Part shown: piece by piece, positions 46,138 to 62,968 of the stretch
How the letters are laid out: every line of letters begins with the position of its first letter
Position numbering within the stretch: position 1 is the first letter of the stretch
DNA from: Candidatus Poribacteria bacterium
Lineage (GTDB): Bacteria > Poribacteria > WGA-4E > PCPOR2b
Direction: 5' to 3'
Assembly (NCBI GenBank): GCA_965208675.1
Contig: OZ242351.1
Location: 1,280,001-1,344,000, forward strand
Length of the DNA stretch: 64,000 nucleotides
The notes under the pieces: model-generated
The model's database searches: none
Told to the model about the DNA's origin: nothing
What the model saw: the letters and a program-made list of their open reading frames with translations, nothing else
Made by a program: the position numbers and the translations under genes

Positions 46138-46185
46138 TGCGAAGTTCTTATCTTTAACAAGAAGGTGTTTGTTTTTGCAGGCTCG

Positions 46186-46457
46186 GTAGGAGCGATCTCC
46201 GAATCGCGACACACACTTCCTCAATCACAGTTCTTGTAGGTTGGGTAGAGCGGGTAGTATCAAAACCGTTCCGATAGCATTAACCGTCCAGAACACTAAA
46301 CATTGCACTTTGTCTATTACATGTAGCGAAACCCAACGATCAACTGAGCGAATAGCGAAGGCGATTGTCTTCAGCATTAAAACCTCCTGACAACCAAATG
46401 ATTACCTGCTCCCGTAATTACACCCCATCATTTAATCACACGAATCACACTTCAACC
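46186..46457 (+). repeat. Composite repeat: REP-A, short AATC unit, split REP-B, AATC tract
   Basis: REP-A 46186-46210; GTAGGTTGGGTAGAGCGG-69nt-GTAGCGAAACCCAAC 46236-46337; AATC tract 46416-46457. Confidence 0.85.
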
Positions 46458-57363: not shown

Positions 57364-57644
57364 CTATCTCCCAACCGCGGTATTTACACGATATTTCTTG
57401 TAGGTTGGGTAGAGCGGATAACCCCAGTCCGTAACTATTGCAAATTCACACTCGGAATATCCAAAGGACGCCCTTTACAAAATAGATGTAGCGGAACCCA
57501 ACGATCAACTGAGCGGATAGCGAAGGCGATAGCCTTCAAGTTCATTCCTCCAGCGAATCCTAACGCTTTTTTACTTTCAAAACCGAATAACATCGTACTC
57601 CCACAATCACAGCCCATCATTTAATCACACAAATCACAGTTCAG
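57364..57644 (+). repeat. Composite repeat: degenerate REP-A, split REP-B (70-nt insert), AATC tract
   Basis: GTAGGTTGGGTAGAGCGG at 57400, GTAGCGGAACCCAAC at 57488, tail shared with the 46338 copy; AATC tract 57605-57644. Confidence 0.85.
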
Positions 57645-62520: not shown

Positions 62521-62968
62521 ATCCTCCCCCTTACTATCGGGGAGCAAGAGGGGCATTGACAAATCGTCGGGAACCAGAATTCCCTCTTACCAAAATCCAA
62601 CCCCAGAAGGAGCCATCTCCGTATCGCGACGCGTACTCCCTCAATCATAGCCCATCAGTTAATTACACGAATCACAGTCTTTGTAGGTTGGGTAGAGCGG
62701 GTTATACCAAAACCGTTCCGATTGCTTTGACGGTTCAGTACCAAAAACATTGCTCATTGCAAATTACGTGTAGCGAAACCCAACGCTTTTCTGACCTCTC
62801 GAGTTTTCAAAAGCGTTGGGCTTCGCTACCCACTACCAATGCTTGAACGCAATCAACTCACCATCCTCATGCGTCATAACTCACATATTTCATCAATCCC
62901 GCTTTACTCAACCTACAGGAATTTTAAATCATAGCCCATCATTCAATCATACAAATCACAGTTCAGAC
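62521..62968 (+). repeat. Mosaic of four repeat types including a complete 234-bp double split-REP element (62683-62916)
   Basis: C-tract/G-tract hairpin 62521-62553; REP-A 62606-62630; AATC tracts 62643-62678 and 62927-62968; nested inverted repeats. Confidence 0.85.

Follow-up and report, generated by a model that had tools for sequence, protein, structure and literature searches.

A GTAG-tagged REP family with an expanded loop of near-constant length, probably tied to a RAYT of related genomes, in a Candidatus Poribacteria bacterium

Four copies of a two-box repeat were located by exact-pattern search in the window, by which the whole 64,000-nt stretch of Candidatus Poribacteria DNA analysed here is meant. 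The left box, GTAGGTTGRGTARAGCGG, was matched at 46236-46253, 57400-57417 and 62683-62700 on the plus strand and at 62899-62916 on the minus strand, compared with 0.00 matches expected from 100 shuffles. The right box, GTAGCGRARCCCAAC, likewise gave four matches (0.28 expected from shuffles), at 46323-46337, 57488-57502 and 62770-62784 on the plus strand and at 62815-62829 on the minus strand. These exact matches reproduced the four arms of the initial annotation, both in their coordinates and in the lengths of the inserts enclosed by the boxes (69, 70, 69 and 69 nt). Two of the arms stand singly on the plus strand with both boxes exact. The first, of 102 nt, lies at 46236..46337 with its insert, termed filler in the following, at 46254-46322 (69 nt); the second, of 103 nt, lies at 57400..57502 with a 70-nt filler at 57418-57487. 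A 35-nt mini-element, GATCAAC...GTCTTC, abuts the right box of the first (46338..46372, plus strand), and a mini-element also follows the second (57503-57537, plus strand).

The other two arms face each other as a doublet. Arm 1, on the plus strand, begins with an exact left box at 62683..62700, made up of a GTAG tag, the 5' half of a stem (GTTGGGT) and AGAGCGG. It continues, as given by the box coordinates, through a variable filler of 69 nt that forms an unstructured loop expansion (62701..62769), and ends with an exact right box at 62770..62784, in which GTAGCGAA precedes ACCCAAC, the REP stem's 3' half. Arm 2 is inverted and occupies 62815..62916 on the minus strand (right box 62815-62829, filler of 69 nt at 62830-62898, left box 62899-62916). 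Between the two lies a centre of 30 nt, GCTTTTC...GAAAAGC (62785..62814), that by sequence and fold lengthens the inner stem formed by the two right boxes and supplies its loop. The doublet is bracketed by two plus-strand copies of a 36-nt module, AATCATAGCCCATCA...ATCACAGT, at 62643..62678 and 62927..62962, the right copy differing from the left at several positions; the module is itself a dispersed repeat. Folded as single-stranded DNA, 62683-62916 reached -41.9 kcal/mol (z -6.3) with the outer boxes paired over 19 bp and the inner boxes paired as well, while the two 69-nt fillers stayed open as a 69x69-nt bubble. A lone arm was a poor hairpin, with a DNA fold of -12.9 kcal/mol (z -1.17) whose centroid retained the 7-bp stem only. 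In alignment the boxes varied little or not at all. The fillers of the arms at 62683 and 46236 were visibly homologous and that of the arm at 57400 weakly so. The inverted arm was, as claimed, not recognisably similar; its filler belongs to another sub-family than that of arm 1 and groups with four further copies in the genome (cluster 8).

The boxes recur throughout the genome, hereafter G000, a single contig of 4.89 Mb with 49% G+C. Strict boxes formed 118 pairs genome-wide, with spacers of 67, 68, 69, 70 and 71 nt in 6, 16, 65, 22 and 9 cases; for the other 154 strict left boxes the nearest strict right box was at least 99 nt off or there was none nearby, and no shorter spacers were seen. 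A looser scan gave 345 left boxes genome-wide, 286 of them with a right box no more than 400 nt away. These fell into classes of 31-34 nt (n=19), 41 nt (n=1), 55-74 nt (n=14), 91-104 nt (n=213, of which 206 were 100-104 nt) and at least 120 nt (n=39). Arms of 105-119 nt were absent from this genome scan, and arms of 42-96 nt other than a compact REP with a mini-element numbered at most about six, lengths of 75-96 nt being very rare. As a measure of length spread among decayed arms, a loose-pattern scan was dominated by chance right-box matches and by a box variant one base shorter. Members of the 31-34-nt class are ordinary compact REPs with a small paired loop, for example GTAGGTTGGGTAGAGCC-GAA-GGCGAAACCCAAC, carrying the same boxes as the long arms, so that the label of a split REP in the initial annotation was apt: the same two boxes stand either abutting or 69 nt apart. 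A small imperfect palindrome of 20-40 bp is accordingly seen in the 19 compact copies and not in the 213 arms, whose closing stem is 7+2 bp. Most of the 55-74-nt class is a compact REP that holds the 34-nt form of the GATCAAC...GTCTTC mini-element in its loop. This mini-element (34-35 nt) is a separate repeat family with 147 pattern matches in the genome, nested in REP loops as well as abutting right boxes. The small dispersed repeats that Elhai et al. reportedly described in Nostocaceae in 2008 are relevant to this mini-element, nested as it is in the loops of REP1 (our name for the present family). The 69-nt filler is a different thing: it lacks conserved ends of its own and is absent outside REP1 arms.

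The ends of the arms are the invariant part. Among 101 lineage representatives the bases of the GTAG tag were conserved at 96% (G), 100% (T), 97% (A) and 96% (G), and left-box positions 1-11 and 14-17 at 93-100%. GTAG-REPs with an insert of near-fixed length between near-invariant flanks, as originally proposed, are in this way seen in 213 arms. Three box variants occur, left and right variants going together: 170 arms fall into four combinations and 7 into other fully classified ones, the right box being unclassified in 28 further arms. One right-box variant is a base shorter and the total length of its arms is one less, which shows that filler length, not total length, is what is held constant. 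By a crude ORF map 200 of the 213 arms are extragenic, and the same map gave 0.24, 0.37 and 0.20 arms per kb of tandem, convergent and divergent intergenic space, a weak pattern. A GTAG directly 5' of the stem and a high-copy, extragenic distribution are both found in the family. No replication-strand bias was seen among single arms (57 versus 44) or compact REPs (11 versus 9), with a cumulative GC skew that was lopsided and replichores that were uncertain.

The nature of the filler was evaluated across the copies. Of the 106 clusters that BLAST formed from the 213 arms, 74 were singletons. Between clusters, the identity of 69-nt representative fillers was 0.341 in register and 0.245-0.26 when slid by 2 to 30 nt, and the in-register value was 0.355, 0.343 and 0.326 in successive thirds. 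Arms from Desulfobacterales MAGs compared with those of G000 gave an in-register filler identity of 0.309 versus about 0.24. As the in-register identity is even along the filler and extends to the Desulfobacterales, the fillers constitute one old, collinear and much-diverged family. Base preferences were weak and spread throughout, A-rich positions 27-29 being the clearest. The ratio of transitions to transversions was 1.09 within filler clusters versus 1.35 for G000-G002 loci, G002 being the genome of a congener, and no special process is indicated.

Several identities for the filler were rejected. Structured non-coding RNA was dismissed on a fold no better than that of shuffles (mean z -0.06 as RNA and -0.19 as DNA, n=101 lineage representatives), on the lack of any Rfam match at gathering thresholds across the whole window and on the alignment: the fillers held no covarying pairs, their strongest mutual-information pairs not being Watson-Crick, and an RNAalifold consensus for 35 arms, all 102 nt long and drawn from many genomes, with boxes fixed by the search pattern, held the closing stem only (columns 5-11 with 96-102 and 15-16 with 91-92) and 0 compensatory pairs. 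None of 23 listed sequencing runs is registered as RNA. A coding filler was rejected because at most about one third of the 101 representatives were stop-free in any one frame and because variability in 14 clusters was without 3-base periodicity. The stem 7-mers fit GTTRRRY/RYYYAAC, the pattern of integron attC sites; in attC, however, the order of the two is the reverse of that in the arms, and this candidate was set aside as well. Readings as tRNA-like or retron-like elements were dropped from the look of the sequence.

The initial annotation had further suggested a captured guide- or spacer-like segment, a reading under which the filler, or a small RNA processed at a stem formed by the conserved ends, would be functional cargo. 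The architecture of conserved ends around a variable middle of fixed length does recall spacers and guides, and the closing stem carries tandem G·A mismatches. However, fillers that are homologous in register were not acquired independently. Only 24 of the 213 fillers matched anything in the arm-masked genome by BLAST, and the matches listed for those 24 were mostly copies of the nested mini-element or unmasked arms. The 234-nt unit, used as a single query, had no match among 50,697 phage and 72,556 plasmid records. Arrays of arms were segmental tandem duplications, 91-96% identical, and none had differing fillers; a CRISPR-like or spacer-capturing array was rejected on the dispersal of the copies, the in-register homology of the fillers and the lack of foreign matches. 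With drift at orthologous sites that resembles that of other intergenic DNA, and with neither structure nor an Rfam match, the cargo reading is largely refuted and we regard it as scarcely credible.

The preferred reading of the arms, as members of a REP family, leads on to their arrangement. By raw counts 112 of the 213 arms form 56 convergent, tail-to-tail pairs, versus 13 divergent and 9 tandem pairs, so that inverted doublets at preferred spacings, as in REPINs, had been recognised correctly from the window. The centres of the 56 convergent pairs measured 30 nt (4 pairs), 54-60 nt (24), 78-97 nt (12, mostly containing a mini-element) and about 140 nt (4), the rest being of other sizes. Partners within a unit belong to differing filler sub-families and may also differ in box variant. 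The same partners recur, for example clusters 0 and 1 or clusters 10 and 8, which suggests that the doublet is copied as a whole unit. In these units only the boxes pair, left with left and right with right, and a hairpin running through the whole unit with compensatory changes was not found.

The behaviour of the arms in place was investigated by aligning 1.6 Mb of G002 to G000, of which 1.33 Mb could be mapped. Among arms with mapped surroundings 12 were kept in place and 15 were not; 7 of the latter (5 loci) were cleanly absent from G002 and 8 (5 loci) faced different, longer DNA. Both arms of a unit were jointly absent from G002 at 2 loci and a single arm alone at 3, differences that may be insertions in G000 or deletions in G002. 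Within the window, the arm at 46236 has an orthologue in G002 whose filler differs at 8 of 69 positions, the locus as a whole being about 10% diverged. The block 57380-57595 is absent, the flanks being 5 nt apart in G002, and so is the doublet with its margins (62679-62926). At the latter site G002 has one copy of the 36-nt module, the start of which is like the left copy and the end like the right copy. Since this single module looks like a hybrid, recombinational deletion in G002 fits as well as insertion in G000.

An enzyme for the arms was searched for among Y1-type proteins. G000 has four Y1-type matches, none with REP1 arms within 1.5 kb. Two of them exceed the NCBIfam cut-off for RAYTs (132 and 85 bits), and each is flanked by another compact REP family of its own, GTGGGAGAGGCATCCCTGCCTC and GTAGTAGCGCAATTCATTGCGCG. 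In the congener G001, by comparison, a 180-aa protein scored 201.6 bits against NF047646, the REP-associated tyrosine transposase (cut-off 80), and 34.9 bits against PF01797, which identifies it as a RAYT-type Y1 HUH protein, and its gene sits amid a pile of REP1 arms. In G003 the gene of the orthologue (81% identity) lies between a 100-nt arm, 18 nt away, and a 104-nt arm at a distance of 67 nt. Five orthologues of at least 72% identity were found among 31 related genomes, all flanked by arms, and in a public species collection all seven loci of at least 67% identity to the G001 RAYT, from Ca. Poribacteria, were flanked by arms on both sides. The flanking arms at these seven loci are 99-104 nt long and are joined by some REPs of 32-33 nt; such compact REP1 copies near the RAYT take the same positions as arms and can stand in for one arm of a unit. 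RAYTs at 43-56% identity, in Phycisphaerae, Planctomycetota, Hyphomicrobiaceae, Schlesneria and Fluviicoccus, are accompanied by compact REPs. That of a Fluviicoccus MAG (50% identical) has 29-nt REPs, GTAGGATGGGTTGAGGCACGAAACCCATC, of the same design with a stem pair changed on both sides. As the distant relatives of the RAYT carry compact REPs, the loop expansion is derived within the lineage now in Poribacteria.

On these sequence associations the RAYT is the likely enzyme of the arms. The proposal of the initial annotation that a RAYT mobilises them was in this respect supported by the relatives, where the gene is flanked by the same REPs, and failed in G000, where no arm-flanked RAYT exists. 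A tblastn search of G000 for the G001-type protein gave at best 27% identity, the matches being the other RAYTs, and the syntenic site held no remnant; in G002 there was no match at E <=1e-20. Exact left boxes nevertheless numbered 154 in G000 and 187 in G002, both RAYT-less, versus 43 and 60 in the RAYT-bearing congeners G001 and G003, which is the opposite of a simple relation of enzyme to copy number; 27 further related genomes had no more than 12 each. The cognate RAYT would seem to have been lost from G000, leaving some 270 copies as orphans.

The enzyme also bears on whether the units are an ordinary MITE, a non-autonomous derivative of a cut-and-paste IS whose terminal inverted repeats would be the outer boxes of 18 nt. 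The units do carry terminal inverted repeats, left box against inverted left box, they are insertion/deletion polymorphisms, and one of them lies between 36-nt imperfect direct repeats. That apparent duplication is, however, a dispersed repeat module, and by ORF sizes only none of 36 spans of 450-4000 nt between inverted arms holds a transposase-like gene or a parent IS. The arms flank a RAYT and not a DDE enzyme in 7/7 loci, the GTAG tag and the compact hairpin form of 31-34 nt are hallmarks of REPs, and single arms and compact REPs interchange within units. Neither a broad spread of insert lengths nor a lack of extra conservation in the flanks, the features by which the initial annotation would have recognised a MITE, was observed. 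We consider this reading very improbable.

The REP reading of the arms was pursued further through divergence at orthologous sites. Between G000 and G002 crude coding divergence was 6.8%, that of other intergenic DNA 11.4% (0.114) and that of the fillers 13.7%, or 12.3% in 12 arms aligned end to end. The boxes diverged by 0.033-0.034, about 4 times more slowly than the filler, a difference that is partly built in since arms were chosen by near-consensus boxes in G000. With 13/395 changes in boxes versus 101/822 in fillers the gap is far beyond chance by a hand chi-square, though inflated by the same selection. Intergenic background showed one gap per 20.7 substitutions, 312 of 945 gaps being longer than 1 nt. 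Nine gap opens were observed in fillers versus 6.0 expected at this intergenic ratio, from which it follows that resident copies are not protected from indels.

Slow boxes in the absence of an enzyme might also mean that they serve the host, the arms being spaced protein-binding or genome-structuring sites that are independent of a transposase and have their spacing set by a host protein. REP and BIME sequences bind host proteins in enterobacteria, most copies of the present family occur in two genomes without the cognate RAYT, and the fourfold conservation of boxes over fillers was measured in that very pair. The selection of arms by their boxes, however, inflates this conservation, and 12 arms were kept versus 15 that were not between the two genomes. 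The bias by intergenic type is not strong and that by strand is nil, and no candidate binding protein was identified. A host role of this kind is unlikely.

Under the reading as a RAYT-linked REP family, the constancy of filler length remains to be accounted for. Exactly 69 nt was found in 45 of the 101 lineage representatives, in register through all thirds, even though lineages differ by about 66% in register, corresponding by a hand Jukes-Cantor estimate to about 1.6 substitutions per site, or about 110 over the 69 nt. With gaps arising at the background ratio, a rough hand calculation predicts about 5 gap events per lineage pair, of which many would exceed 1 nt. Arms in other Poribacteria were 95-105 nt long (n=107, 85 of them 101-103 nt) and those in Desulfobacterales MAGs 102-103 nt in 11/11 cases, within a search window of 91-111 nt. 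Since indels are free in resident copies while family length is fixed, length is most probably filtered when copies propagate; the length of 69±2 nt would then be kept at that step and not in resident copies. Bertels and Rainey (2011, PMC3116915) came to the same conclusion for REPINs, where spacer length and hairpin capacity seemed critical. Their SBW25 spacers have such hairpin capacity, whereas the Poribacteria fillers have none.

Length might instead be a matter of inheritance only, one 102-nt ancestor having accumulated substitutions without any filter and with too little time for indels. Every filler is indeed a collinear descendant of one sequence, variants of ±1-2 nt are tolerated, and resident copies have no deficit of indels. 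However, several indels per pair are predicted at the background gap rate from the estimated number of substitutions, close to half of the representatives are exactly 69 nt and in register throughout, arms of 105-119 nt are missing while non-compact arms of 42-96 nt number about six at most, and the arms of other Poribacteria and of Desulfobacterales are of the same size despite the wider search window. We hold inheritance only to be rather unlikely as an explanation.

Should a filter exist, the RAYT clade may measure length. The single-stranded DNA-binding protein (SSB) of E. coli has a binding mode of about 65 nt, and on this reading the roughly 74 unpaired bases between the boxes of an arm would have to match the size wrapped by one SSB tetramer; wrapping could then join the boxes on exposed lagging-strand DNA and present a REP stem to the enzyme. 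If true, such a ruler would account for a filler without set sequence or structure that is collinear and of one size across phyla. A ruler of the kind that the initial annotation suggested for the nuclease is possible though unsupported, an SSB-wrapped loop being one form of it, and measurement by SSB in particular we rate as quite unlikely.

Taken together, the arms are probably a GTAG-tagged REP family, REP1, with a loop expansion of about 69 nt, linked to a RAYT, moving as doublets, orphaned in this genome and filtered by length. The starting point would be an ordinary hairpin of about 30 nt, with GTAG, a stem of 7 bp (GTTGGGT/ACCCAAC), a small internal loop rich in purines, a GC clamp and a short loop; the filler that expands it in the arms goes back to one ancestral insert and is neither coding nor structured. 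On single-stranded DNA the RAYT presumably recognises nothing but the two boxes and their GTAG tag, which would explain why the boxes are near-invariant while the filler drifts. The REPIN-like unit, 233-260 bp in length and built from two arms tail to tail, would be what is copied, gained or lost, and a filter at the time of propagation would hold the filler at 69±2 nt. Change in the orphan copies would now come chiefly from drift and deletion, from nested insertion and from local tandem duplication.

In the usual view a REP is a compact hairpin gripped directly by its RAYT. Here the loop is about 70 unpaired bases free in sequence, the length of which outlasts saturating sequence change and transfer between phyla; this implies that either recognition by the RAYT copes with half-sites far apart or the gap between them is being measured. 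The pair of genomes without the RAYT, with 3-4 times the copies of the RAYT-bearing pair and boxes that still change more slowly than the filler, provides a natural experiment on the fate of REPs without their enzyme. In practical terms arms and nested mini-elements occupy much of the intergenic space of Poribacteria, and unless they are masked, calls of promoters, small ORFs and "conserved leaders" will go astray. Four points are new: that the family is tied to a single RAYT clade across genomes, that its ancestral form was compact, that G000 holds it as an orphan, and that resident copies are free in indels whereas the family length is fixed.

In the literature searched, the box strings were found only as unrelated primers and caacccaacctac was not found, though figures and supplements of REP surveys could list the motif; literature linking Poribacteria with REPs amounted to one passing review. 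Among the nearest known systems is the super-family of GTAG-tagged REPs (Di Nocera, De Gregorio and Rocco 2013, PMC3733652), with which the present arms share the GTAG terminus, stems of 6-9 bp, head-to-head and tail-to-tail dimers, heterodimers of sub-types and loop variants. The largest loops given there show self-complementarity and reach 27 bp, unlike those of Poribacteria, in which 67-71 nt are joined by a few box bases left unpaired and self-complementarity is lacking. The REPtron of E. coli and relatives, consisting of REPs and a RAYT or TnpA-REP (Nunvar 2010, PMC2817692; Ton-Hoang 2012, PMC3333891; Messing 2012, PMC3479197), has in common with the arms a 5' GTAG beside an imperfect hairpin, high copy number, extragenic location and, in 7/7 Poribacteria loci, a RAYT flanked by its own REPs. 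It differs in a hairpin loop of a few unpaired nucleotides versus about 74 in Poribacteria, and the cognate RAYT is absent from G000 and G002, the genomes with most copies. To the REPINs of Pseudomonas fluorescens SBW25 (PMC3116915), in which spacer length is described as critical with 71 bp between the invariant 16-mers of GI, the likeness lies in the inverted doublet unit, the invariant ends, the less conserved spacer and the occurrence of singlets beside doublets. The SBW25 spacer pairs into a hairpin with compensatory changes, however, whereas the Poribacteria fillers are unrelated to each other and unstructured and form a 69x69-nt bubble, and each REP of the Poribacteria doublet is itself 102 nt long, unlike in SBW25. 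An undescribed system, as the initial annotation had it, was therefore an overstatement: the arms are a variant of REP/REPIN, a family of this kind with its RAYT and not a new system, which departs from those known in the size of its loop and in its open, unrelated fillers.

The REP1 arms of the window, GTAG-REPs of about 102 nt in which a left and a right box enclose a filler, are accompanied by several other dispersed elements. Adjoining the arm right boxes is a mini-element of 34–35 nt, GATCAACTGAGCGAATAGCGAAGGCGATAGTCTTC and its variants, located at 46338-46372 and 57503-57537 in the window and found genome-wide, with 147 pattern matches in the genome that holds the window (G000). This mini-element is also nested in the loops of compact REPs and occurs in tandem with itself. 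A dispersed module of roughly 36 nt, AATCATAGCCCATCA.TTAATCACACGAATCACAG, adjoins the arms as well (62643-62678, 62927-62962, ~46417-46449 and ~57560-57595), and imperfect direct repeats of it flank the tail-to-tail doublet at 62683-62916 on both sides. The palindromic element CCTCCCCCTT...GGGGAG lies at 62524-62552, and CCTCCCCCTT is matched 46 times in the genome.

A second GTAG-REP family, GTAGGAGCGATCTCCGAATCGCGAC, was observed in the window at ~46176-46201 and ~62620-62640 and genome-wide (38 core matches in G000), often just upstream of REP1 arms and then followed by a 'CCTCAATCACAG' tail. The two REP-associated tyrosine transposases (RAYTs) of G000 that score above the NCBIfam NF047646 cut-off, L002 (C1:3522617-3523105) and L003 (C1:~190370-190999), each lie amid a distinct family of compact REPs (GTGGGAGAGGCATCCCTGCCTC and GTAGTAGCGCAATTCATTGCGCG). 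This single genome therefore holds at least four REP families.

Entire REP1 units are, together with their flanks, amplified as tandem segmental repeats in both G000 and the congener G002. An array at G000 C1:1190613-1191910 comprises four copies of ~346 bp, and in G002 the tandem copies at two loci (L132 and L134) recur every 216, 325 or 377 bp and are 91–96% identical. Tandem REP1 units beside the RAYT of a further congener, G001 (L199, 2076-3410), are traversed by long ORFs of up to 267 aa that are spurious and constitute a hazard for annotation. In the window, ORFs of 50 and 61 aa are found on the minus strand at 46225-46377 and 57435-57620. Both start at an ATG just beyond the mini-element, preceded by GGAGG on that strand, and their reading frame crosses the mini-element and enters the REP1 arm. 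These small ORFs, which would be annotated as hypothetical proteins, are probably spurious.

Desulfobacterales MAGs also contain REP1 arms of 102–103 nt, distributed over several large contigs (entries L005, L008, L037, L044, L053, L056, L063, L068, L071 and L084). Most of these arms carry one filler sub-family, at the start of which the right box recurs in inverted orientation (GTTGGGTTTCGC). This pattern suggests that the arms spread recently, following inter-phylum transfer among sponge-associated bacteria.
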